NCBI GenBank assembly: GCA_022574775.1
Contig: JACZRI010000002.1
Span: 74,303-138,302, forward strand
DNA length: 64,000 bases
DNA from: Patescibacteria group bacterium
GTDB taxonomy: Bacteria; Patescibacteriota; Minisyncoccia; Minisyncoccales; RBG-13-36-15
Reading direction: 5' to 3'
Position 1 is the first letter of the stretch, and the number at the start of each line of letters is the position of its first letter. Shown one piece after another: positions 12,119 to 57,265 of the stretch. A model generated the notes under the pieces. The model did no database searches, was not told the DNA's origin, and worked only from the letters and a program-made list of their open reading frames with translations. A program made the position numbers and the translations under genes.

Positions 12119-12393
12119 TAAGAGTACAAGGTTCGAACCAGAATAAATTGAGCGGAGCGAATTCAGGTAAGATTCGAGGCGCGAGGAATGACGCGATGCC
12201 AAAGTGCATCGTAAACGACGAGCAACAAAGAAGCTTACCTGAATTCACCCGCCTGAAGGGAAACTGAAAAATGGCTGATTTCTTTGTTGCTCCTCCTTGA
12301 AGTAGTTTCTAACTACTCCTTTGTCGTCGCGTCGCGAAATCACCTCATTTTTCAGTTTCTCAATCTGATTTTGGTTCGAATCCTGTACTCTTA
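12119..12393. repeat. GC-rich 275-nt rod-like palindromic element, copy A
   Basis: Termini TAAGAGTAC...GTACTCTTA with GGTTCGAACC next to each end. Nested inverted repeats include GAATTCAGGTAAG/CTTACCTGAATTC and GAAACTGAAAAATG/CATTTTTCAGTTTC. Colinear with copy B at 16502-16766. Confidence 0.85.
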
Positions 12394-13172: not shown

Positions 13173-13993
13173 AATTGTTTAGTTTCTTCTTGAAGTTTTC
13201 GGGTAATATTTGACTGAAGGCCAGTTAATCGAACTAAATCGTGGAGGGAATATTTTAATAAATCTTTTGCTAACACAATTCTTTTTTTGGCAAGCATTTC
13301 TTTGGCATATTTAGTAAGCGAGGGTAAAATAGTGATGGGATAAAGCCCCTTTTTCTCAATTAAGCACTCTAAACTTTTATCTTTAGGATAACGCCAGCTA
13401 ATAATTTTTAACCCGGCACAACGAGCATAGCGAATTGCTTCACTTGTGCATTTAGTATTAGTTACCAACCAAGCCTGATGGAAAAAGTATTGATGGCCAG
13501 GCTTCTTTTCCCAAGCTTTTTTAACATCCAAAAATCTGGCATAAACATAAAGAGCTACTTTTACATCTGAACGGATGCCTCTGTTATTGTGATATTTGCA
13601 CTCAATCATAAAGTGTTTCTTTCCTTTTCGGACTACAACATCAATTTCGTGGCTAATACAATATCCTTTCACTATGCTTCCTACTTTTGTAGTATAGCCA
13701 TATTCTTTTAAAATCTCGGCAATATATTTTTCAAAAAGAAAACCTGCCGGTCCTAATTCCATTATAGCTCTTTTTAGATTATAACGAGCAGCCAAGATAG
13801 GATTTTCTTCTTGAAGACATTTCGTAGTTTGATCCAGAATTTCCCCTGAGTTCATTCCATGACGAATACTCTTTGCTACGGTTTTACAAACTTTTCCTGC
13901 CAATTTTGGCTGAACCCCAGCTCTTTTCAATGATTGATAAAGCTTTACCTTATTAAATTTTTCTTTTTCACCAGAAGCTTTTATTATATCCAT
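13160..13993 (-). CDS. ATP-cone domain / restriction-endonuclease-like (Mrr_cat-type) protein
   Basis: MDIIKASGEKEKFNKVKLYQSLKRAG (ATP-cone-like) followed by HEIDVVVRKGKKHFMIECKYH, a PD-(D/E)xK-like core. The track ORF extends to 14026. Confidence 0.65.
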   Translation of the reverse strand: MDIIKASGEKEKFNKVKLYQSLKRAGVQPKLAGKVCKTVAKSIRHGMNSGEILDQTTKCLQEENPILAARYNLKRAIMELGPAGFLFEKYIAEILKEYGYTTKVGSIVKGYCISHEIDVVVRKGKKHFMIECKYHNNRGIRSDVKVALYVYARFLDVKKAWEKKPGHQYFFHQAWLVTNTKCTSEAIRYARCAGLKIISWRYPKDKSLECLIEKKGLYPITILPSLTKYAKEMLAKKRIVLAKDLLKYSLHDLVRLTGLQSNITRKLQEETKQLCLR

Positions 13994-14072
13994 ATTACTG
14001 CTACTTTTTGGAAAACGCCGCGGCAAAATAAGCCCTTACTTTTTTCTGTATTGAATTTAATCCATCCACGAC

Positions 14073-16474: not shown

Positions 16475-16501
16475 AAAGTTATTTAAATGTTTAAGAGTAC
16501 A

Positions 16502-16766
16502 GGGTTCGAACCAGAGTCAATTGAGCGGAGCGAATTCAGGCAAGATTCGAGGCGTCGAGGAGTGATGCGATGCCGAAGCGCATCGTGAGCGACGAGCAAC
16601 AAAGAAGCTTGCCTGAATTCACCCGCCCGAAGGGAAGCTAAAAAATGGCTGATTTCTTTGTTGCTCCTCCTCGAAGTAGTTTCCAACTACTCCTTTGTCG
16701 TCGCGTCGTGAAATCACCTCATCTTTCAGCTTCTCAAGCTGATTTTGGTTCGAATCCTGCACTCCT
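16502..16766. repeat. GC-rich rod-like palindromic element, copy B
   Basis: Colinear with copy A. Carries paired substitutions that keep the stems (CAGGCAAG/CTTGCCTG versus CAGGTAAG/CTTACCTG; GAAGCT/AGCTTC versus GAAACT/AGTTTC). Confidence 0.85.
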
Positions 16767-17110
16767 GACACTAATTATTAGTATAAAGGCGGAAACGAGA
16801 ATCGCAAATGTAATAATGCCGACATTAATTTTAAAAAAATCCTTATAAAAAGTTCGTTGAACGGCGGTCAGAGAAATTCTTAGAATAAACATGCCTTTGT
16901 AATTTGGTTTTAGTTCTTTCATGTTTATTATTAGATTTATAATATCATTAATTAAAATAATACTCTATAATCTGGGCATGGAATTCGAAACACCAGAATA
17001 ATTCACATATATTTATTATTCGTTCTTTTTAATTTTTTTTGCTTGCCCAGTTGCAAGCCGACCTGCCCTGCAGAGAAAGTCGCGCAAAAGATGAGTAGTT
17101 ATTCCTTATT

Positions 17111-23701: not shown

Positions 23702-23818
23702 GGTAATGATTATGACATATTAATTAATACTCTCTAGTTTGTTATACCCTTTCCAGCGAAAATACTACAACCCCAAAAACCGCCATCTTGGAGATTGTTT
23801 GGCTACTATAGTAAGCAG

Positions 23819-23890
23819 CTCCGGGGGCAGGATTCGAACCTGCAACAAACGGCTTAACAGGCCGTCGTTCTACCATTGAACTACCCCGGA
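23819..23890 (-). tRNA. tRNA-Asn (GTT)
   Basis: Hand-folded cloverleaf: acceptor TCCGGGG/CCCCGGA, anticodon loop CTGTTAA, T-arm GCAGG-TTCGAAT-CCTGC. No encoded CCA. Confidence 0.9.
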
Positions 23891-24000
23891 ATGATTATTA
23901 AATAGCGCTTATTTTTTTATTATAATAATTTTTTTCGAAAATTTCAATCTTCCCCACTCGCCAATCACTAATCGCTAAACGCTATTCATTAAGCGCTAAT

Positions 24001-25203
24001 CTAGTATTCTTTCAACTTTTTCAATCCTTTGTGCTCCCTGATTTTTTCCAGAGACTTGGCCTCAATCTGCCTAATTCTTTCTCTGGTTACACCAAATTCA
24101 TTACCAACCTCTTCTAAAGTATGAGTTATTCCATCTTCCAAGCCAAACCTCATTTCTAAAATCTTTTGTTCTCTCGGAGCCAAGTCAACCAGAATCTCTT
24201 TCATTCTTTCTTTTAGTAAAGCTCTTGCTGCAACCAAAGAAGGCGACACTTCTTTTTTATCCTCAATAAATTCAGCTAGAACGCTGTCTTCATCGCTATC
24301 CCCGACTGGAGTTTCCAAAGATACGGTTTCCTGGGAAATTTTCATTATATGATGTACCTTACCAAGCTCAATGCCCATTTCAGCGGCAATCTCCTCTGGT
24401 AATGGATCCCTTCCCAAATCCTGCAGCAACCTTCTCCTTGCTTGACTGTATTTTGAAATAGTTTCCACCATATGGACTGGGATTCTGATAGTCCTTGCCT
24501 GATCAGCTAAAGCCCTCGTGACTGCTTGTCTAATCCACCATGTTGCATAAGTTGAAAATTTATATCCCCTCCGCCAGTCAAATTTTTCAACTGCCCGGAA
24601 AAGACCAAGGTTTCCTTCTTGAATTAAGTCGAGCAAAGTTAAATTTGGAGATCTTCCAACATACCTTTTTGCAATAGAAACCACTAATCTTAAGTTAGCC
24701 TGGGCTAAGGCTTTCTTCGCCTCCTCATCCCCTTTCTCGATTTTCTTTGATAATTCTTTCTCTTCAGCCGCAGTTAAAAAAGAAACTTTTCCAATTTCTC
24801 TTAAATACATCTGAATTGGATCAATTTTTTCATCTATGGTTCTGCGCGTAACAGCAGGAACTTCTTCCACATCAAGAAATTCTCTTACCTCCTTAAGCTT
24901 AATTCCCTTTCTCTCCAAAATATCATAAAGATTTTCCAAACCATCTATGTCTCTTTCTATTTCTGGAAATACTGATAAAATTTCAGAAAAAGTTAAAAAT
25001 CCCCTTTCTTCGCCTTTTTTAATTAATGGTTGAATCATTTCAGGGGTGACTATTTTTTTCTTAAAATGGGGCCGTTTTACGCTTTTCTTTTTCTTTATTT
25101 TTCTTTTCCGCTTCTTCTTGAGTTTTTTTTTCTGAACAATCTTCCTTGCTGTTTTTTTCTTCACTCGTTTTATCTTTTTTTTCGCTTTTTTGTTTTTTTT
25201 CAT
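24001..25203 (-). CDS. rpoD: RNA polymerase sigma factor RpoD (sigma-70)
   Basis: Regions 1.2-4 are recognisable ([50 protein letters not shown]). Lysine-rich N-terminus. Confidence 0.95.
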
Positions 25204-32653: not shown

Positions 32654-33220
32654 TTATCTTGGTAACTTGGCAATTATATGAAAAATCGCAGGATGCTGGA
32701 CAATAAATTTATAATTCAATAATTTCAAAACTGTTAAAAAATCTAAAACCTCTTCTCTGAATGCTTCAGGTCCCGTAAAAACTTCCCAAAGCTCTTCAGC
32801 TACTTTTTTAATAAAATTATTAAACACTTCATAATCTTTTCTTTTCCTCAAATATTCAATAATTTTCCTAAACTCTCCTCTGTCAAGCCAAACACCCAAA
32901 CATATATTACAAAAATCTACGCTAATTTTTGAGTCTCCGTAATTCACTTCATAGAAAGGCAACCTGCAAGATGGACAGAGCTTTTGACCCTTTGAAATCT
33001 TAAACTTTTTTCTTTCTTTCCAAAGATCAATGTCCAACCAATTCAAACTTTCGTCTTTTTTATCTTTTGCCAACCTTAATTCCTCTTCTTCAAACCAAAG
33101 ACCAAGACACTTCGGACAATAGTCAATCTCCACTCCATAAAAAATAGCTTTCTCTAAATTTTCTTTGCAAAAAGGACAGGACAAATTTTGAAGTATGAAG
33201 TATGAAGTATGAAGAAACAA
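32654..33220 (-). CDS. tandem zinc-ribbon (zf-TFIIB-like) protein
   Basis: Two CPxC...CxxCxGxW modules (CPFC..CPKCLGLWF; CPSC..CNICLGVWL). The first 11 codons are encoded by a heptamer repeat, so the start is uncertain. Confidence 0.6.
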   Translation of the reverse strand: MFLHTSYFILQNLSCPFCKENLEKAIFYGVEIDYCPKCLGLWFEEEELRLAKDKKDESLNWLDIDLWKERKKFKISKGQKLCPSCRLPFYEVNYGDSKISVDFCNICLGVWLDRGEFRKIIEYLRKRKDYEVFNNFIKKVAEELWEVFTGPEAFREEVLDFLTVLKLLNYKFIVQHPAIFHIIAKLPR

Positions 33221-33262
33221 AGAATAAAAATCTTCAGGTCTTCAGTCTTCAGACTTCAAACT
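33190..33262. repeat. heptamer-array palindromic element
   Basis: (GAAGTAT)x3-GAAGAAAC-loop-TCTTCAGG-TCTTCAG-TCTTCAG-ACTTCAA. Spans the htpX stop to the next ORF start. Confidence 0.8.
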
Positions 33263-34155
33263 TTTAAATCTCTTAGGGCTTTTGTTCTTTCTCCTACCGG
33301 AGGATGAGTTGTAAATAGTTTGTGGAGCCAGGATTTTTTTTCTTCTCCCCGAAAAGGGTTTACAAAATACAAATGGGCAGTTGCATCGTTAGCTGATTTT
33401 AATGGTTTTGAATCTTGGGAAATCTTTTCCAAAGCCCTGGCTAACCCTTCAGGATATCTTGTCAAAAGTGCGCCTGAAGCGTCAGCCAAGAACTCTCTTT
33501 TCCTGGAAATTGCCAATTTAATTAAAATAGCGAAAAGTGGAGCCAAAATAGCCAAAGCCAGAGCAATTAAAATCATAATTCCTCCCCCGCCTTGGCGATT
33601 CCGGCCTCCAAACCCTCCCCAAAAACTAATCCTGAAGAAAAAGTCAGTCATAATAACCACCACTCCCACTAATACCACGATAATAGTTGAAAGCAGTACG
33701 TCTTTGTTCCCAATATGGGATAATTCATGGGCTATTACTCCTTCCAGTTCCACCCTATCCAGCCTTTCCAAGAGTCCTCGTGTTACTGCAACAACTGCAT
33801 GCTTTGGATTTCTTCCAGTTGCGAAAGCGTTTGGTTGGGCTTCATTAATTATATAAATTTTGGGCAAAGGAAGGCCGGCAGTTATCGCGAGATTCTCAAC
33901 AATTCTATAAAACTCCGGGTTATCTTGCTTTTCAATGGGCTTCGCTTTTGCCATTGCCAAGACAATTTTATCAGAATACCAATAACTAAAAAAACTCATT
34001 AAAACGCTTAATACTACGGCAATCCATAAAATCACGGATGTCTGCAAGAGATAGGATATCAACCAACCGAGCGCAATAATGAAAAGGAAAAAAAAAGTTA
34101 CATAAAGCCAAGTTTTCCGAATATTTGATTCAGCATGCGTGTATAACGTTGCCAT
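33256..34155 (-). CDS. htpX: protease HtpX (M48 family)
   Basis: HELSHIGNKD zinc motif and four TM segments. Confidence 0.9.
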   Translation of the reverse strand: MATLYTHAESNIRKTWLYVTFFFLFIIALGWLISYLLQTSVILWIAVVLSVLMSFFSYWYSDKIVLAMAKAKPIEKQDNPEFYRIVENLAITAGLPLPKIYIINEAQPNAFATGRNPKHAVVAVTRGLLERLDRVELEGVIAHELSHIGNKDVLLSTIIVVLVGVVVIMTDFFFRISFWGGFGGRNRQGGGGIMILIALALAILAPLFAILIKLAISRKREFLADASGALLTRYPEGLARALEKISQDSKPLKSANDATAHLYFVNPFRGEEKKSWLHKLFTTHPPVGERTKALRDLKV

Positions 34156-35040: not shown

Positions 35041-35571
35041 TTAGCGGGTAACTGAAATCGTTGGAGCAGCTCCATTTTCTGACTCAGCACCAGGAGCAGA
35101 AACTGTCACTCGACCGGTGGTGGAATCTTTGACAATAGTGTAGCCGGTATCGTAATCTGCGCAACTAGTATAACTACCAGTTGTAGGATCAACAGGCATA
35201 GCTCCTATATAAAGAGCAACAAGACAGTCGCAAATATCATAAATAGCATCAGTATTTGGATTTTCTGGAGCGGAGTCAAAAGCCATATTTATTGCAGCAG
35301 CATCTGGAATAGGTGCCTCACAGGCAGCATTGTCAAAAGTTCCTCTTCCATCAACAATATTCTGAGAGACAGCATTTAAGATAGTATTCACAGCTACAAA
35401 ACGGGAAGCATTATTGGCTTTGGCGAACTGCCTTCCCGGATTAATTGCAACAATGGCTATTGCCATTAAGATCGCAATAATTCCAATGACAATTAATAAC
35501 TCAATCAGCGTAAATCCCCTTCGAAGTCTGAAGTCTGAAGTCTGAAGTCTGAAGAATTTTTTAATTTTCAT
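35041..35571 (-). CDS. type IV pilin (major pilin candidate)
   Basis: MKIKKFFRLQTSDFRLRRG|FTLIELLIVIGIIAIL: class III signal with G-1, F+1, E+5. The track ORF extends to 35667, which I regard as non-coding. Confidence 0.85.
   Translation of the reverse strand: MKIKKFFRLQTSDFRLRRGFTLIELLIVIGIIAILMAIAIVAINPGRQFAKANNASRFVAVNTILNAVSQNIVDGRGTFDNAACEAPIPDAAAINMAFDSAPENPNTDAIYDICDCLVALYIGAMPVDPTTGSYTSCADYDTGYTIVKDSTTGRVTVSAPGAESENGAAPTISVTR
35523..35557. repeat. tandem heptanucleotide repeat (GAAGTCT)x4 plus one variant inside the pilin leader-peptide codons
   Basis: Counted directly: four perfect units at 35523-35550 and GAAGAAT at 35551-35557. Confidence 0.9.
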
Positions 35572-45460: not shown

Positions 45461-45519
45461 GGAAAACAACAAAACCCCCCCCACCACTTTTGACTGAAAA
45501 ATAAAAGTGGTGGGGGGGG
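45461..45519 (-). terminator. strong rho-independent terminator after groEL
   Basis: 17-bp stem CCCCCCCCACCACTTTT/AAAAGTGGTGGGGGGGG, followed on the minus strand by TTTTGTTGTTTT. Confidence 0.8.
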
Positions 45520-47356: not shown

Positions 47357-47647
47357 TTATTCAAGAATCGCAAGGATATCCTCCTCTCGCGCTATTAAAT
47401 ATTCCTTGTCGTCAATCTTCACTTCACTTGGTCCGTATTTTGTAAATAAAACAATATCTCCGCTTTTCACCTCTAATGGATTCACTTTGCCGGCAGATGT
47501 TTTTTTGCCAGGCCCCACTGCAATCACTTTGCCCTGCTCGGGCTTATCTTTTTCAGTAATTTCTGGCAATAAAATCCCAGTCTTAGTCTTTTCCTCCTGC
47601 TTCATTGGCTCAATTAAAATATGGTCTGATAAAGGTTTTATATTCAC
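47357..47647 (-). CDS. groES: co-chaperonin GroES
   Basis: 96 aa: IKPLSDHILIEP...GKVIAVGPG...GDIVLF. Confidence 0.95.
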   Translation of the reverse strand: MNIKPLSDHILIEPMKQEEKTKTGILLPEITEKDKPEQGKVIAVGPGKKTSAGKVNPLEVKSGDIVLFTKYGPSEVKIDDKEYLIAREEDILAILE

Positions 47648-47738
47648 ACTTCGACTCGTCCTTCGCTTCGCTCAGTCTTCGCTCAGTGCAAGTAGTCGAA
47701 GTGTCCTGAGTTTGTCGAAGGATAATATTATATCTACT

Positions 47739-47765
47739 TTAGCAATCACAATCTTTGAGTGCTAA
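47739..47765. promoter_or_regulatory. CIRCE element (HrcA operator)
   Basis: TTAGCAATC-N9-GAGTGCTAA versus consensus TTAGCACTC-N9-GAGTGCTAA, upstream of groES. Confidence 0.8.
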
Positions 47766-47824
47766 TTCTATTTTGGATACTATAACTTACAGAAAGTTGT
47801 GTCAAGCCCTAAACTACACTGGGT

Positions 47825-50800
47825 TCAAAATGCAACCCTCTTACCCATAAACACTGGCTTCAAATATTTTCCAGTATAGCTTTTTTTATTTTTTATTACA
47901 TCTTGTGGCAAGCCTTCAACCACAATTTTGCCGCCTCCCTCCCCTCCTTCAGGACCCAAATCAATTATCCAGTCAGCATTTTTTATTACATCTAAATTAT
48001 GTTCTATGATCAAAACGGTGTTCCCCATATCCACTAATCCACGCAAAATCCAAACTAACTTTTTGATGTCGTCTGGATGAAGCCCAGTAGTTGGCTCATC
48101 TAAAATGTATAATGTTTTCCCTGTTGCCTTTCTGGAAAGCTCGGTGGATAATTTTACTCTTTGCGCCTCTCCTCCAGAAAGAGAAGGAGCTGGTTGACCA
48201 AGATGAATATAGCTTAAGCCAACTTCATTTAAAGTTTTTAATTTCTGGGAAATGCTTGGTATTACCTTGAAAAACTCTAAGGCTTCTTCTACTGTCATTT
48301 CTAAAACCTCTGAAATATTTTTTCCTTTATACCCAATAGACAGGGTTTCTTTATTAAATCTTTTTCCTTTACATTCTTGGCATTCCACATAAACATCTGG
48401 TAAAAAATACATTTCAATCTTTTTCACTCCCTGTCCTTCACAAACTTCACATCTCCCGCCCTTAATATTGAAAGAGAATCTGCCAGGCAAGTAGCCTCTG
48501 ATTCTTGCCTCTTTTGTTTTGGAAAAAAGATCCCTGATATGGAAAAAAGCTCCGGTGTAAGTTACCGGATTAGATCTTGGAGTTCTTCCAATTGGAGATT
48601 GGTTAACTAGAACCATTTTATTTAAATTTTCCCAACCTAAAATATTTTTATGTTTTCCGGGTTCTTCTTTGGTATTGTAAAATTTTTTTAAAAGCGCGCG
48701 AGCCAAAATATCATTCATTAAAGAACTTTTTCCAGACCCTGAAACTCCTGTGATGCAAATAAACTTACCCAGGGGAATCCTCACATTGATATTTTTCAGA
48801 TTGTGCTCTTGAGCCCCTTTGATAAGTAGGAAGTTTGAAGTCTTGGAGTCTGAAGATCGTTTCGTTTCTTCATACGGTTCGGCTGAGCTCACCGAAGTCT
48901 TCGCACTTCGTACTTCAACCTTTTTCCGACCTGACATATATTCTCCAGTTAATGTCTTAGCTTTTAATAATTCTTTAGGTGTCCCCTGAAAAATAACTCT
49001 TCCGCCATGCTTCCCGGCTCCTGGACCAATATCAATTATCCAATCTGCAGCTAAAATAGTTTGAGGATCATGTTCAACCACACAGATTGTATTTCCCAAA
49101 TCTCTCAATTTTTTTAGGATCTTTATCAATCTTTGCTGATCTCTTGAGTGCAGTCCGACTGAGGGTTCATCTAAAATATATAATACTCCCGACAATTTTG
49201 ACCCAATTTGGGTCGCTAACCTTATTCTTTGTTCCTCTCCACCTGCTAAAGTTCCTGTTTTTCGATTACAGGTTAAATAATTTAAACCAACATCAATTAA
49301 AAATTGCAAACGATTAACAATTTCTTTCACAATCGGCAGAGCGATTTTTAAGTCTGAAGCATGAAGTCTGCTGGATCCAAAGGAAACTCCCTTGAGGGCT
49401 GCGCCTGAAGATCTCTTTTTCGTTTCTTTATACTTTGTACTTCGTGCTTCGTATAATCCTTCAAAAAATCTTTTTGCCTTATCAATACTCACCACTACCA
49501 CTTCATCAATAGACTTCCCTGCCACAGTAACCGCCAAGGCCGCATGATTTAATCTTTTTCCCATGCATGTCTCGCATTTTTTTTTAAACATATATTGTTC
49601 AATTTCTTCCCTGGTGTAATCTGAATCTGTCTCTCGATATCTCCTTTCTAAAGAGGGAATAACTCCTTCAAAACTTGAATTTGGTATTTCTTGTTTTGCT
49701 GTGCCTCCCAGCACCGAGCTCTGCTCTGGTGCTGGGGTACTTCGTATTTCCGACTTGGCAGATTCGCCGTATAAAATTAAATCAATTATTTTCTTGGGAA
49801 GTTCTTTGACTGGAGTGTTGAGAGAAAAATTACACTTTTCTGCCAATCCGGCAAGCTGCAGCCAGAAATAACTCTGGCGGCCCAATCTATGAGATGCTCT
49901 CATCCAGGGACGTATAGCCCCCTCTTCAATGGTTAAATTTAGGTTAGGAATGACTAATTTTGGATCCACCTCTAATTTTTCTCCCAATCCCTGGCAAGAT
50001 AGACAAGCTCCGTAAGGGGAATTAAAAGAAAAAAGTCTTGGTTCAATCTCGGGAAGCGAGATTCCGCATTTTTCACAGGCGAAATGCTCACTGAATATCA
50101 GATCACTAAAAGCCTGAAGGTTTCTTCTTTGTTTCTTCGCACTTTGTACTTCGTGTTTTGTACTTACTATCGTAGTCCCTTTCCCCAATTTCATGGCGGT
50201 TTCCACTGAATCTGCCAACCTTGACCGATCCAAATCTTTTTCAATTTTCAACCTATCAACCACCACTTCAATGGTATGCTTTTTCTTGCGATCCAACATT
50301 TTTTGCAAAGCTTCTTCAATCCGATATAATATCCCGTCAATTCTTACTCTAACAAATCCTTCTCTTTGAATTTCTTCTAACACTCCAAGATGCTCACCTT
50401 TTCTACTTCCGATCACAGGTCCTAAAATCGTAATTTCTTTTCCTACGAATCCCTGACCCGTAATCTGATCTAAAATTTGATCAATTGTCTGGCAAGAAAC
50501 CGGCTTTTTGCATTTGGGACAATGAGGTTTCCCTATTCGCGCGAATAGGAGACGAAGGTAATCATAAATTTCTGTAATCGTGCCTACTGTTGAACGAGGA
50601 TTGCTGGCTGCTTTTCTCTGGTCAATGGAAATTGCAGGAGAAATTCCTTCAATCCTTTCTACGTCCGGCTTATCCATTACCCCTAAAAACTGACGGGCAT
50701 AGACAGATAAACTTTCCACATAGCGGCGCTGGCCTTCAGCATACAAAGTATCAAAAGCTAAAGAACTCTTGCCAGACCCTGAAATCCCTGTAATTACCAC

Positions 50801-50884
50801 CAGTTTATTTTTCGGGATATCCAAATCAATGTTCTTTAAGTTATGGACTTTAGCTCCTCTGATTTTTATATAGTTATTTTTCAT
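47825..50884 (-). CDS. uvrA: excinuclease ABC subunit A
   Basis: Two ABC modules ([20 protein letters not shown]; LSGGE signatures) and zinc fingers. Start at [11 protein letters not shown]; the track N-terminal extension is repeat-encoded. Confidence 0.95.
48829..48920. repeat. heptamer/palindromic repeat inside uvrA (site 4)
   Basis: Coding strand: GAAGTACGAAGTGCGAAGACTTCGGTGAGCTCAGCCGAACCGTATGAAGAAACGAAACGATCTTCAGACTCCAAGACTTCAAACTTC. Encodes [28 protein letters not shown]. Confidence 0.75.
49349..49456. repeat. heptamer/palindromic repeat inside uvrA (site 3)
   Basis: ACGAAGCACGAAGTACAAAGTATAAAGAAACGAAAAAGAGATCTTCAGG...CTTCATGCTTCAGACTT. Encodes [36 protein letters not shown]. Confidence 0.75.
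49683..49760. repeat. GC-rich hairpin segment inside uvrA (site 2)
   Basis: CCAGCACC-GAGCTCTGCTCT-GGTGCTGG flanked by an ACGAAGT-type unit. Encodes [25 protein letters not shown]. Confidence 0.55.
50112..50165. repeat. heptamer/palindromic repeat inside uvrA (site 1)
   Basis: ACGAAGTACAAAGTGCGAAGAAACAAAGAAGAAACCTTCAGGC. Encodes [16 protein letters not shown]. Confidence 0.7.
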
Positions 50885-50894
50885 AAGAAAAATT

Positions 50895-51055
50895 AGAGAG
50901 GGGTCGGGGGAACTGGGTGTTCCCCGTGCAGGAAAACAGGCTCGAGCACTCAACGGCTTAAGTGCTCGAACGTTAGAAACCGTGGGTGTCTAAAGAGCGG
51001 TGTTAGTCCCGAATTAAAGTCGGGACGTGCCGCGACTCGGGCATGATTAAGTCCT
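50895..51055. repeat. GC-rich hairpin element, copy in the uvrA/trxB divergent intergenic region
   Basis: GGGGAAC-TGGGT-GTTCCCC (50907-50925), then TCGAGCACT...AGTGCTCGA and GTCCCGA...TCGGGAC hairpins. Colinear with the copy at 28167-28305. Confidence 0.75.
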
Positions 51056-55097: not shown

Positions 55098-56369
55098 ATG
55101 AAGAGTTTTATATTTTTAAAAAAAGAAGAGGTGAAAAAGCTTCCTAAAAGTCCAGGGGTGTATGCGTTTAAGAAAAGCAGAGAATTCTTATATATTGGAA
55201 AGGCATCAAATATAAAAGAAAGGGTAAAAAATCATTTTCAGCAGCCGGTTTATAGAAATAATCTTTTTCTAAACCAGGTATCCAGAATAGGCTTTATAGA
55301 AACTGAATCAGAAATTGAGGCTTTGCTCCTGGAAGCTCATTTAATCAAGAAATATCAGCCAAAATATAATGTTGTATGGCGGGATGACAAAAACTTTTTT
55401 TACATTGGTATTACGAAAGATGCATTGACCCGAGTCTTTATTACCCACCAACCCACAAAAAACCTAAAAGCTACAAGCTACAAGCTACAAGCTAATTATA
55501 TTGGTCCTTTCGTGGAAGGAAAACCACTCAAGCAAACTTTAAGATTTCTCAGGAGAATTTTTCCTTACTACACTGCAAAAAAACACAAAAAAAATCCCTG
55601 CACCTACTGTCATTTAGGGCTTTGCCCGGGACCTAATCCTAACACAAAAGAATACAAAAAAAATATTAAAAATTTAGTCAGTGTTTTGAAAGGAAAAAGA
55701 AAATCGGTTTTAAAAAATCTGAAAAGAGAAATGAAGCTTGCCAGCTCGCTTCAAGATTTTGAAAAGGCAGCTAGAATAAGAGATCAAATAAAAGCTTTGA
55801 AAAAAGTCCTTGCTTATGCTAAAATTTTTGGAGCAGCAAAATTGGTGTCAGAAAAAGATTGGCAGGAAATCCAAAAATATCTTAAAAATTTTCTCAAAAC
55901 GAAGAAACAAATCTCCAAAATCGAAGCCTATGATATTTCAAACATTCAAGGGAAACAAGCTACCGGATCAATGGTCACTTTTATTAATGGAATACCAGAC
56001 AAAAATTTCTATAGGAAATTCAGGATAAAAATGACACCTAAACCAAATGATATTGCAATGATAAAAGAAATTTTGTCGCGGAGATTTGGACATCCCGAAT
56101 GGCCGTTTCCAGATTTGATTTTAATTGACGGAGGAAAAGCCCAGCTAAATGTTGCTCGATCAACAATCAGCAACCAGCAATTAACGATTCCTGCTATAGC
56201 TCTTGCTAAAAAAAGAAATGAACTATATATTGAAAATAAAAAAAACCCTATTTTACTCAAAACTCTTCCTAGACCAGTTTTCAAACTTATTTTGCAGCTT
56301 AGAGACGAAGCCCACCGTTTTGCTCTCACTTACCATCTAAAACTTCGGAAGAAATTTCTTCTTGGGTGA
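55098..56369 (+). CDS. uvrC: excinuclease ABC subunit C (short form)
   Basis: GIY-YIG (PGVYAFK...LYIGKASNIKERVKNHF), UVR motif (FEKAARIRDQIKAL) and an endonuclease V-like C-terminal region. No C-terminal HhH recognised. Confidence 0.85.
   Translation: MKSFIFLKKEEVKKLPKSPGVYAFKKSREFLYIGKASNIKERVKNHFQQPVYRNNLFLNQVSRIGFIETESEIEALLLEAHLIKKYQPKYNVVWRDDKNFFYIGITKDALTRVFITHQPTKNLKATSYKLQANYIGPFVEGKPLKQTLRFLRRIFPYYTAKKHKKNPCTYCHLGLCPGPNPNTKEYKKNIKNLVSVLKGKRKSVLKNLKREMKLASSLQDFEKAARIRDQIKALKKVLAYAKIFGAAKLVSEKDWQEIQKYLKNFLKTKKQISKIEAYDISNIQGKQATGSMVTFINGIPDKNFYRKFRIKMTPKPNDIAMIKEILSRRFGHPEWPFPDLILIDGGKAQLNVARSTISNQQLTIPAIALAKKRNELYIENKKNPILLKTLPRPVFKLILQLRDEAHRFALTYHLKLRKKFLLG
55469..55496. repeat. 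tandem heptanucleotide (AGCTACA)x3 plus variant inside uvrC
   Basis: Counted directly. Encodes KATSYKLQAN. Confidence 0.9.
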
Positions 56370-56803: not shown

Positions 56804-57025
56804 ATGGAAAAAATCTTGTTAATCTCACAAATTATAGTATCAATTCTATTGGTTGTTTTTATTTTATTACAGCAAAGAGGAACAGCTCTAGGATCAGCCT
56901 TTGGTGGAGGTGAAGGAGGAGGATTTTATGGAACGAGACGGGGAATCCAGCAAAAAATCTTTTGGGGATCAATCGTCTTAGGAGCCCTTTTTATCATTTT
57001 AGCTTTATTAAATCTTATAATCTAA
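56804..57025 (+). CDS. secG: preprotein translocase subunit SecG
   Basis: Two TM segments with the LLQQRGTALGSAFGGG motif. Start at MEKILL (alternative ATG at 56798). Confidence 0.8.
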   Translation: MEKILLISQIIVSILLVVFILLQQRGTALGSAFGGGEGGGFYGTRRGIQQKIFWGSIVLGALFIILALLNLII

Positions 57026-57026
57026 A

Positions 57027-57130
57027 AAATATAAAGCTGAAATGATAAAAAGGCAGAAAAGGGTTGGGGAAACTGGGTGTTTCCCCATAGCGGAAATATT
57101 AAAACCGAAGGGTTTTAAGGAGTAAAACGA
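57027..57130. repeat. GC-rich hairpin element, short copy at the secG 3' end
   Basis: GGGGAAAC-TGGGT-GTTTCCCC (57066-57086). Flanked by 41-bp direct repeats at 56986-57026 and 57131-57171 (one mismatch) that duplicate the secG 3' end. Confidence 0.8.
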
Positions 57131-57265
57131 CCTTTTGATCATTTTAGCTTTATTAAATCTTATAATCTAAATATGCGCCTTGTAAACTCGCGCAATCCTG
57201 AGCTTGTCGCCCTTCAATGCGATTCAGGGCGACCCTGAACTTTGTTGAAGGATTGAAGGATTCAA

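Follow-up and report, generated by a model that had tools for sequence, protein, structure and literature searches.

The stretch of DNA analysed here, referred to as the window, comprises 64,000 nt of contig JACZRI010000002.1 from a Patescibacteria group bacterium (positions 74,303 to 138,302 of the forward strand; 36.8% G+C) and carries on its minus strand a uvrA gene with four in-frame low-complexity segments, patches 1-4, three of which resemble a palindromic repeat located between two other genes of the window. The uvrA coding sequence (47825-50884, minus strand) encodes 1019 aa from the ATG at 50884 (MKNNYIK), and the longest open reading frame (ORF) at this position (47825-50953, minus strand) begins with the TTG at 50953 and is 1042 aa long. 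An initial sequence-only reading of this DNA had taken the 1019-aa form to begin at the true start, and this form is identical to a database protein (P0001; handles beginning with P denote proteins and those beginning with L denote loci) annotated as UvrA of 'Patescibacteria group bacterium'. The uvrA product scores 1404 bits against the NCBIfam UvrA equivalog model (cut-off 1147), matches all solved UvrA chains in the PDB at E=0 and retains every residue that is invariant across an alignment of 92 close homologues. Judged by the equivalog match, its two ATP-binding cassette (ABC) modules and its Zn-module cysteines, the gene encodes a full-length UvrA. The shortest close homologue has 938 aa, in agreement with the earlier estimate that the protein is some 80 aa longer than a typical UvrA.

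The extra length is distributed over the four patches, all of which keep the reading frame as had been claimed. The patch peptides span aa 244-259 (patch 1, 50108-50155), 376-400 (patch 2, 49685-49759), 478-513 (patch 3, 49346-49453) and 658-685 (patch 4, 48830-48913), each encoded on the minus strand. An alignment with Geobacillus UvrA (2r6f) shows them as inserts of about 14, 8, 28 and 16 aa, and relative to the minimal state of their own clade they add about 19, 28, 28 and 15-17 aa, respectively.

Patches 1, 3 and 4 can be described in terms of a repeat that is designated family A in this work. In an intact family-A copy, 7-nt units of the GAAGTAC type make up the left arm, the centre is A-rich and has the form GAAGAAAC(G/A)AAG..AAATCTTCAG, and CTTCAGA-type units make up the right arm. 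Right-arm units pair with left-arm units at 5/7 positions, which gives an intact copy the fold of a long, interrupted hairpin. Motifs of this repeat occur in the window more often than expected: GAAGAAACRAA is present five times (0.33 expected), the core followed by TCTTCAG is present twice compared with none in 100 shuffles, and 12 GAAGNNN tandems (1.3 expected) are clustered, on both strands, in patches 3 and 4 and in the intergenic copy.

For an independent measure of membership, metagenomic copies were collected with the pattern GAAGTNNGAAGAAACNAAN{2,20}TCTTCAG, which returned 22 loci, of which 20 are genuine and two (57% G+C) are chance matches. A hidden Markov model (HMM) was then built from 18 distinct metagenomic copies, none of them from the window, and the window was searched with nhmmer. 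The strongest match is the intergenic copy at 33187-33263 on the plus strand (E=4.8e-19), followed on the minus strand by patch 3 (49349-49454; E=4.4e-9), which spans the full model length (positions 4-81), patch 1 (50106-50160; E=1.1e-7), which retains only the left arm and core (model positions 7-62), and the leader of a pilin gene (35520-35562; E=4e-7), which carries a half copy consisting of the right arm (model positions 41-84). Patch 4 is matched in two pieces on the minus strand, its core and right arm at 48823-48875 (E=5.4e-6) and its left arm at 48898-48923 (E=0.025). Beyond these regions nothing in the 64 kb reaches E<1e-3, giving five family-A copies or about one per 13 kb. Patch 2 (49737-49760, minus strand; E=0.32) falls outside the family. 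On this basis patches 1, 3 and 4 belong to the same family as the intergenic palindrome and patch 2 does not, such that the original claim of four insertions of one repeat holds for three of them. A plain BLAST comparison of the intergenic element with the uvrA patches had been tried as well; it finds only exact matches of 12-14 nt with E about 0.01-0.2, which alone are too weak.

The coding strands of the three patches preserve the order of arm, core and arm to different extents. Patch 1 reads GAAGTAC AAAGTGC and then the core GAAGAAACAAAGAAGAAACCTTCAGGC, translated in the phase G|AAG|AAA, with the right arm missing; BLAST aligns it with patch 3 over 44 nt at 84% identity. Patch 3 reads GAAGCAC GAAGTAC AAAGTAT, the core AAAGAAACGAAAAAGAGATCTTCAGGC, 33 nt of foreign sequence (49370-49402) that splits the copy, and AGACTTC ATGCTTC AGACTTA. 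In patch 4 the left arm GAAGTAC GAAGTGC GAAGAC is cut off by a nested 19-nt hairpin, TTCGGTGAGCTCAGCCGAA (48878-48896), from the core and right arm, ..GTAT GAAGAAACGAAACGATCTTCAG ACTCCAAGACTTCAAACTTC. A search of the available sequence gave no other copies of the segments inside patches 3 and 4. The sequence-only reading had also ascribed to three of the patches the palindromic architecture of the intergenic element, which it placed at 33190-33262. The match of arms and core is upheld, but the hairpin has largely been lost from the coding copies: folded as single-stranded DNA, patches 1, 3 and 4 are no more stable than their shuffles (z=+0.6, -0.3 and -1.3) compared with z=-5.2 for the intergenic copy.

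Patch 2 is composed differently: a nested mini-palindrome comes after two heptamer-like units (GAAATAC GAAGTAC), and BLAST gives no match to the other uvrA patches. The mini-palindrome is a GC-rich 30-nt hairpin (49707-49736, minus strand; CCCAGCACC-AGAGCAGAGCTC-GGTGCTGGG) with a perfect 9-bp stem and a DNA-fold z of -5.4. A near-copy, CCCAGCACCAGAGCAAATCTCGGTGCTGG, identical at 27/29 positions, lies in frame within a 252-aa ORF on a low-GC metagenomic contig (L086 13991-14019), where a second mini-hairpin adjoins it (13991-14060); this ORF appears to be rsmI-like in our reading of its SDAGTPGISDPG motif. Patch 2 thus represents a second, separate family of small palindromic repeats, nested in a short heptamer-like tract.

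The intergenic copy has the form (GAAGTAT)3-GAAGAAACAAAGAATAAAAATCTTCAG followed by TCTTCAG/ACTTCA units, (GTCTTCA...)n, and has no open frame in either orientation. The TGA stop (33256-33258) of an M48 peptidase gene on the minus strand is located within its right arm, and the sole long-ORF start of the downstream zinc-ribbon gene is a TTG at 33220 in the repeat core, with an alternative TTG just past the left arm; the repeat may therefore have reshaped the ends of both genes. A role as terminator or promoter was considered and set aside when a consensus scan gave nothing at the element, as was membership in a known RNA family, given that the only Rfam matches in the window are three tRNAs. 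The remaining copy of the window is situated in a type IV pilin-like gene, identified by its Pfam N_methyl motif, in which (CTTCAGA)x4.6 (35520-35562, minus strand; Tandem Repeats Finder (TRF) score 64) is read in the leader as MKIKKFFRLQTSDFRLRR before GFTLIELL, upstream of the G|FTLIE motif. Type IV pilin leaders are cleaved, and if this one is, the repeat-encoded part would be absent from the mature protein.

The sites occupied by the patches were next compared among the 120 best UvrA homologues (68-75% identical by BLASTP, Parcubacteria/Nealsonbacteria-like, 938-1039 aa). Nearly all length variation in this set occurs at the same four sites. Minimal states can be recognized as VIVND at site 1, ILYGDxxFEGVI at site 2 and EKISLKENERKIA at site 3, and most relatives carry different content at these hot spots. 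Contents with a period of 7 aa, such as NTKYKIRNTK, NSKFEIRNSK and NPKSEILNPK, are frequent and are the signature of a translated 7-nt tandem repeat; others resemble translated mini-palindromes. Family A is missing from the nearest relatives of the window UvrA (75-79% identity): their sequence at sites 1, 3 and 4 is unrelated, and their site 2 is in its minimal 9-aa state. Family-A peptides reappear elsewhere at site 1 (P0038), site 3 (P0027, P0030, P0035, P0102 and P0116) and site 4 (P0015, P0022, P0024 and P0030), in proteins scattered on the neighbour-joining tree. At site 1, the gene of P0038 contains a pristine copy, (GAAGTAC)3.6-GAAGAAACGAAAAAGAAATCTTCA-(CTTCAGA)4.9 (L081 10792-10865; fold z=-2.1). 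An alignment of orthologues had been named beforehand as the comparison that could overturn the repeat interpretation, and it did not: the contents are lineage-specific, and three of the patches are similar in DNA to the intergenic family. The patch contents are therefore not ancestral, and the four sites behave as variable loops in every relative. A separate form of length change is seen at site 2 of P0017, P0078 and P0092 (94-96% identical), where a 16-aa unit, DEAKASSSPSPARAGSVF, is present in one, two or four tandem copies, a 48-nt tandem duplication at the same hot spot.

The sites were also located on a predicted structure, as the sequence-only reading had recommended. An AlphaFold2 model of the window UvrA (92 homologues, mean predicted local distance difference test (pLDDT) score 74.5, predicted template modelling score (pTM) 0.70) matches UvrA crystal structures (3uwx/2r6f; 3uwx_A E=6e-100). 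Four of the longest coil-only segments with pLDDT<50 in this otherwise confident model, residues 244-258, 379-402, 488-502 and 662-681, coincide with patches 1-4, which also coincide with gaps relative to the solved UvrA structures. The patches are thus predicted to lie in disordered, permissive loops. On the domain layout that Pakotiprapha and colleagues reportedly described in 2008 for Geobacillus UvrA, site 1 would be at the C-terminal margin of the UvrB-binding domain, immediately ahead of the second Cys pair in Zn module 1, site 2 in the insertion domain, site 3 in a loop of signature domain I and site 4 in the linker between the two ABC halves.

Beyond UvrA, copies inside and outside ORFs, for which a genome-wide count had been suggested, were counted in the window (5 copies) and at the 20 metagenomic loci (18 distinct copies), and about half of them are coding. 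Approximately 11-12 of the 20 copies are in frame and sense-oriented and eight are intergenic. By our own reading of the translated ORFs, the in-frame hosts are glycyl-tRNA synthetase (GlyRS; L084, L086 and L103), the hot spot of UvrC (L088 and L100), UvrA site 4 (L091 and L105), UvrA site 3 (L092), TsaE (L094), FtsK (L099) and glutamyl-tRNA synthetase (GluRS; L102). The family-A core is read in all three phases in different copies, giving YEETKK, KKRKR or GRNEEK; therefore, conservation is at the level of DNA and not of peptide. Across the window patches and metagenomic copies, a mean of 1.7 sense and 0.7 antisense frames are open per copy. The notion of an element built with all three sense frames open and the antisense frames closed was discarded on these counts, being true only of an idealized GAAGTAC consensus. 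No family-A copy was found in 1.33 Mb of other uvrA loci, and the core has no match in 80 uvrA loci from GTDB genomes. In L081-L083, HMM matches occur only in uvrA and uvrC, although these loci were picked because their UvrA peptides already looked family-A-like.

Heptamer arrays of other sequence are a habit of the clade. Using a TRF score of at least 40 as the criterion, period-7 arrays are the dominant tandem-repeat class by TRF period, with 28 in 298 kb of Patescibacteria relatives (94 per Mb) versus nine in 1.03 Mb of non-Patescibacteria uvrA loci (8.7 per Mb), and four in the window versus none in shuffles. Most arrays (27/32) are inside ORFs of at least 120 aa, and 22 of these 27 are in uvrA or uvrC in our own tally by host ORF. 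The heptamer unit is specific to a genome and common to its uvrA and other loci: GTCAAAA is found at three uvrA sites and a fourth locus of L001, and AAAAGCT in both uvrA and uvrC of L005. The Pfam-confirmed uvrC of the window (55098-56369) contains on the plus strand an in-frame TRF array, (CTACAAG)x4.4 (55464-55494), between its GIY-YIG and UVR domains. Other heptamer arrays occupy the same ITHQ...GPFVDG site of uvrC in L001, L003, L005 and L088, where L088 also has a family-A copy, and relatives carry arrays at a second uvrC site as well. Taken together, these data support a phenomenon wider than uvrA that is clade-wide and ongoing, with fixed hot spots in uvrA, uvrC and further housekeeping genes.

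Several further features of the window and its relatives were recorded in the course of the analysis. The groES-groEL genes follow uvrA in the window (47357-50884) and in several relatives (L081, L106 and L107), and uvrC is nearby in L081-L083 and L108; the neighbourhood of these repeat-rich repair genes thus shows conserved local synteny. Directly downstream of groEL is a perfect 17-bp hairpin (CCCCCCCCACCACTTTT / AAAAGTGGTGGGGGGGG; 45475-45519), probably a terminator. A degenerate (TCGCTAA)x6 array (23958-24001) occupies the spacer that separates tRNA-Asn (23818-23890) from the start of the following gene (24001-25203, minus strand), and intergenic DNA before a solute-binding protein gene (56986-57153) contains a 23-nt unit, CCTTTTTATCATTTTAGCTTTAT, three times in alternating orientation. 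Two copies of a ~275-nt element, about 93% identical and closed by a 19-bp stem, are present on the plus strand at ~12119-12393 and ~16492-16767. The 3' side of this stem resembles the T-arm and acceptor end of a tRNA (AGAGTACAAGGTTCGAACC ... GGTTCGAATCCTGTACTCT), and an internal stem shows a compensatory change (GGTAAG/CTTACC versus GGCAAG/CTTGCC). The ~275-nt element has no match in Rfam at a threshold as loose as E<=1 and may be a structured RNA or mobile element not described before.

The rate at which hot-spot contents change is evident from pairs of closely related sequences. Pairs of UvrA proteins with 99% identity outside the hot spots carry site-1 contents that are unrelated, for example NCRLQIANLKKRKEED in P0046 and GVLDLSARRRALLEGEKVQSNKGRRPIKQSNISD in P0119. 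In the DNA of this pair the flanks are 98-99% identical, and a heptamer array has been swapped for a multi-hairpin segment with a few flanking codons changed too. Pairs that are 95-97% identical differ in presence or absence of content at sites 2 and 3. Within uvrC, L088 and L100 (99% identical) differ by a 54-nt in-frame, hairpin-bearing indel (L100 ~688-750 versus L088 3100-3108) and, a few hundred bases further along, have different hairpins at the same site, a hairpin-for-hairpin replacement. L095 and L097 (99% identical) differ by GC-rich hairpins nested into the family-A right arm of one strain, and L097 and L101 by a 130-nt element with ~22-bp terminal inverted repeats (GTAATGAGCACCCCGCCCCCTA...; L101 674-807 versus L097 11131-11150). 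The L088/L100 and L097/L101 differences are direct examples of recent gain or loss of small elements. P0041 (L108) and P0092 (L109) were evaluated as a clean presence/absence pair for a heptamer array and rejected: the gene is a recombinant mosaic, 81% identical over its first ~640 nt and 99.5% over its last ~1900 nt, and so provides no evidence for insertion. The breakpoint region of this mosaic is near hot spots 1-2, suggesting a clustering of recombination junctions at the repeats. Because near-identical strains have unrelated contents or indels, hot-spot contents must be replaced much faster than the genes diverge, and the route could be insertion, short-patch recombination or both.

The explanation that we consider probable is that family A is a dispersed small repeat, similar to the Rickettsia palindromic elements (RPEs), that is tolerated in permissive loops, with patches 1, 3 and 4 as decayed copies of it. 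The elements would be selfish or neutral DNA and not selected protein modules. Copies would spread within and between related genomes, for which transposition and recombination or gene conversion among arrays already present are candidate routes. With ~90% of the genome coding, many copies would land in genes and persist only where their length is a multiple of 3, the frame used is free of stops and the site is a disordered surface loop, a linker or a cleaved leader. After arrival, the arms would change length by 7-nt slippage, other mini-hairpins would nest inside and the palindrome would decay, the state in which patches 1, 3 and 4 may now be seen. The four permissive sites of UvrA and the two of UvrC would then be long-lived hot spots with contents that turn over far faster than the rest of the gene.

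A number of observations weigh against this explanation. No transposase, target-site duplication or defined element end was found: no direct repeats are evident at the boundaries of 20 copies, and neither a transposase nor a REP-associated tyrosine transposase (RAYT) is present among the 20 window ORFs scanned against family libraries, a partial annotation of the window. Only a single intact intergenic copy is present in the 64 kb, and we infer translation of the patches from conservation of frame. Simple tolerance does not predict the strong concentration in uvrA and uvrC, which account for three and one, respectively, of ~15 independent loci in the unbiased scan. The roughly 20 coding copies are all sense-oriented, even though antisense frames are also open at the frequency given above, and thus stop codons alone may not explain the orientation bias. 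Finally, the strain differences look like replacement of short segments at fixed hot spots and not clean insertion, and at least one uvrA difference is the mosaic gene described above; recombination may therefore account for much of the apparent mobility.

In an unlikely but credible alternative, there is no mobile element. Heptamer tracts would arise in place by replication slippage at loop-coding DNA, and copies would be spread and homogenized only by homologous recombination or gene conversion between arrays or strains, for example after DNA uptake. The P0041/P0092 mosaic, the altered codons that flank cassette changes between 99%-identical strains and the lack of an observed target-site duplication or transposase are all consistent with this process. 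It is also favoured by arm copy numbers that vary in 7-nt steps, by the existence of pristine arrays (3.6 and 4.9 perfect units in L081), by the genome-specific heptamer unit and by the over-representation of heptameric repeats in bacteria, which has been ascribed to polymerase slippage (PMC4692102). However, slippage cannot produce the GC-rich mini-hairpins found within AT-rich arrays, nor does it account for a non-periodic ~25-nt core common to uvrA, uvrC, GlyRS, GluRS, TsaE, FtsK, pilin and intergenic DNA of several genomes. The sites that share this core have no common flanking homology, and the sequence must therefore have been copied to new places at some point.

The link to repair genes could instead be functional and not a by-product of loop tolerance. 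In one form of this idea, which we regard as doubtful, the repeats are a so far undescribed class of hot-spot 'cassettes' in Patescibacteria, made of heptamer-armed hairpins and nested mini-palindromes that are preferentially installed or exchanged at fixed sites of nucleotide excision repair genes (four in uvrA and two in uvrC), either by a dedicated hairpin-targeting mechanism or as signals for recombination, uptake or frameshift switching. A role specifically in genome maintenance, with 7-nt contingency tracts that switch uvrA and uvrC by frameshift or with uptake or recombination signals biased to DNA-repair genes like the neisserial DNA uptake sequence (DUS), is very unlikely. The window, the relatives and the unbiased metagenome scan all show enrichment in uvrA and uvrC, a 7-nt unit does shift the reading frame, and recombination is abundant at both genes; moreover, DUS and uptake signal sequences (USS) are reported preferentially in genome-maintenance genes and lie at poorly conserved residues (PMC2817400, citing Davidsen 2004). 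Yet every uvrA and uvrC looked at is in frame (>120 proteins, >20 loci) with no frameshifted allele seen, the density of ~1 per 13 kb is far under the level of uptake signals, close lineages have different unit sequences and copies decay, losing their hairpins, without loss of the gene.

The two remaining alternatives concern whether the patches are insertions of a repeat at all and whether they reach the protein. That the four segments are ordinary ancestral linkers of UvrA, resembling the intergenic palindrome through low-complexity composition, would fit the variability of the four sites in all 120 relatives and the K/S/N/Q-rich filler at sites 1 and 4 in nearly every one of them. This possibility is largely refuted by the HMM test and the strain pairs, and retains very little probability: an independent model gives E values of 1e-7 to 4e-9, arm, core and arm follow one another collinearly, the patch sequences are missing from the nearest relatives and site-1 contents are unrelated in proteins 99% identical elsewhere. 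Scarcely credible is a loss of the inserts by removal from mRNA or ribosomal bypassing (like yeast mitochondrial 'byp' or T4 gene 60), or their origin as assembly artefacts, for although some copies form hairpins (patch 2, z=-5.4), patches 1, 3 and 4 no longer fold, skipped inserts need neither a length that is a multiple of 3 nor a stop-free frame and yet both hold in >120 independent assemblies at six hot spots, and the recurrence of the same sites in assemblies from many projects argues against an artefact.

If the explanation of a tolerated, RPE-like repeat is correct, a very high gene density may drive small repeats into protein loops that permit them, which would account for some of the as yet unexplained length variation and 'low-complexity inserts' in conserved proteins of Patescibacteria. 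As phylogenetic characters such inserts are poor, and breakpoints of recombination can be seeded by them; they can also serve as natural markers of permissive sites in UvrA and UvrC.

Family A and the associated arrays were compared with known repeat systems of microbial genomes. The coding tandem repeats of Borg elements are reportedly direct, with unit lengths divisible by 3, whereas the unit here is 7 nt, the peptide repeats every 7 aa and the arms form inverted pairs. The two systems are alike in that fast-evolving nucleotide repeats in ORFs add intrinsically disordered segments (PMC9879509). Similarly to family A, DUS and USS are short repeats tolerated in genes at poorly conserved positions, with a reported bias to genome maintenance and an association with recombination, but they are 9-12 nt long, occur about once per kb and have a defined uptake function (PMC2817400). 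Family A is 55-105 nt long, occurs about once per 13 kb and has a unit that differs between close lineages. Repetitive extragenic palindromic (REP) sequences and the REPINs resemble it as short, dispersed, non-autonomous hairpin-forming repeats that evolve within genomes (PMC3116915, PMC3733652); REPINs, however, are extragenic and accompanied by a RAYT gene, whereas the copies described here are mostly inside genes, would be translated and have no RAYT among the 20 window ORFs scanned. Features shared with MITEs, the miniature inverted-repeat transposable elements, are the terminal inverted repeats, here heptamer arms that fold (z=-5.2 for the intergenic copy and -2.1 for L081), the length of 55-105 nt and the lack of coding capacity of their own.

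A further system is found in cyanobacteria, for which Elhai and colleagues in 2008 reportedly described tandem heptamers, the short tandemly repeated repetitive (STRR) sequences, often as inverted pairs forming hairpins, with small dispersed repeats (SDRs), palindromes of 20-30 nt, nested in the arrays and in each other. The 7-nt tandem units, inverted hairpin pairs and nested palindromes (patch 2, the inner hairpin of patch 4 and the difference between L095 and L097) are shared, and the arrays are, like heptameric simple sequence repeats of the STRR type, over-represented tandems of 7-nt units with at least about 3 copies. They differ in that 27/32 arrays here are inside ORFs, in other taxa and with other unit sequences. 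Heptameric repeats in Xanthomonas and Nostoc are mainly intergenic and sometimes inverted (PMC4692102). The literature search found no description of in-frame heptamer or palindromic repeats in the candidate phyla radiation (CPR) or Patescibacteria.

The system closest to family A in its behaviour is the RPE, and the parallel had already been drawn by the sequence-only reading. It is borne out in the essential respects: a dispersed palindromic repeat has intergenic copies and in-frame copies in conserved genes, the latter in loops predicted to be disordered. RPEs have a length of about 100-150 bp, with an encoded peptide that is conserved within each family (Ogata et al. 2000, 2002, summarised in PMC10969869). 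They share with family A unrelated conserved host genes, compatibility with the protein fold and a host with a reduced genome, whereas family-A copies are 55-105 nt long and have arms of tandem 7-nt units. The family-A core is, in addition, read in three phases without a conserved peptide, its copies are at recurrent hot spots that have different occupants in each lineage, its hosts belong to the phylum Patescibacteria, and a relation to RPEs in sequence is not expected. Family A would thus represent a second, independent case of in-frame selfish palindromes, until now treated as a peculiarity of Rickettsia, in an unrelated reduced-genome radiation, and one distinguished from the first by 7-nt periodic arms and strain-level evidence of ongoing turnover. 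Family A appears to work like the RPEs without being a member of them, a distinction drawn from peptide, architecture and phylum.

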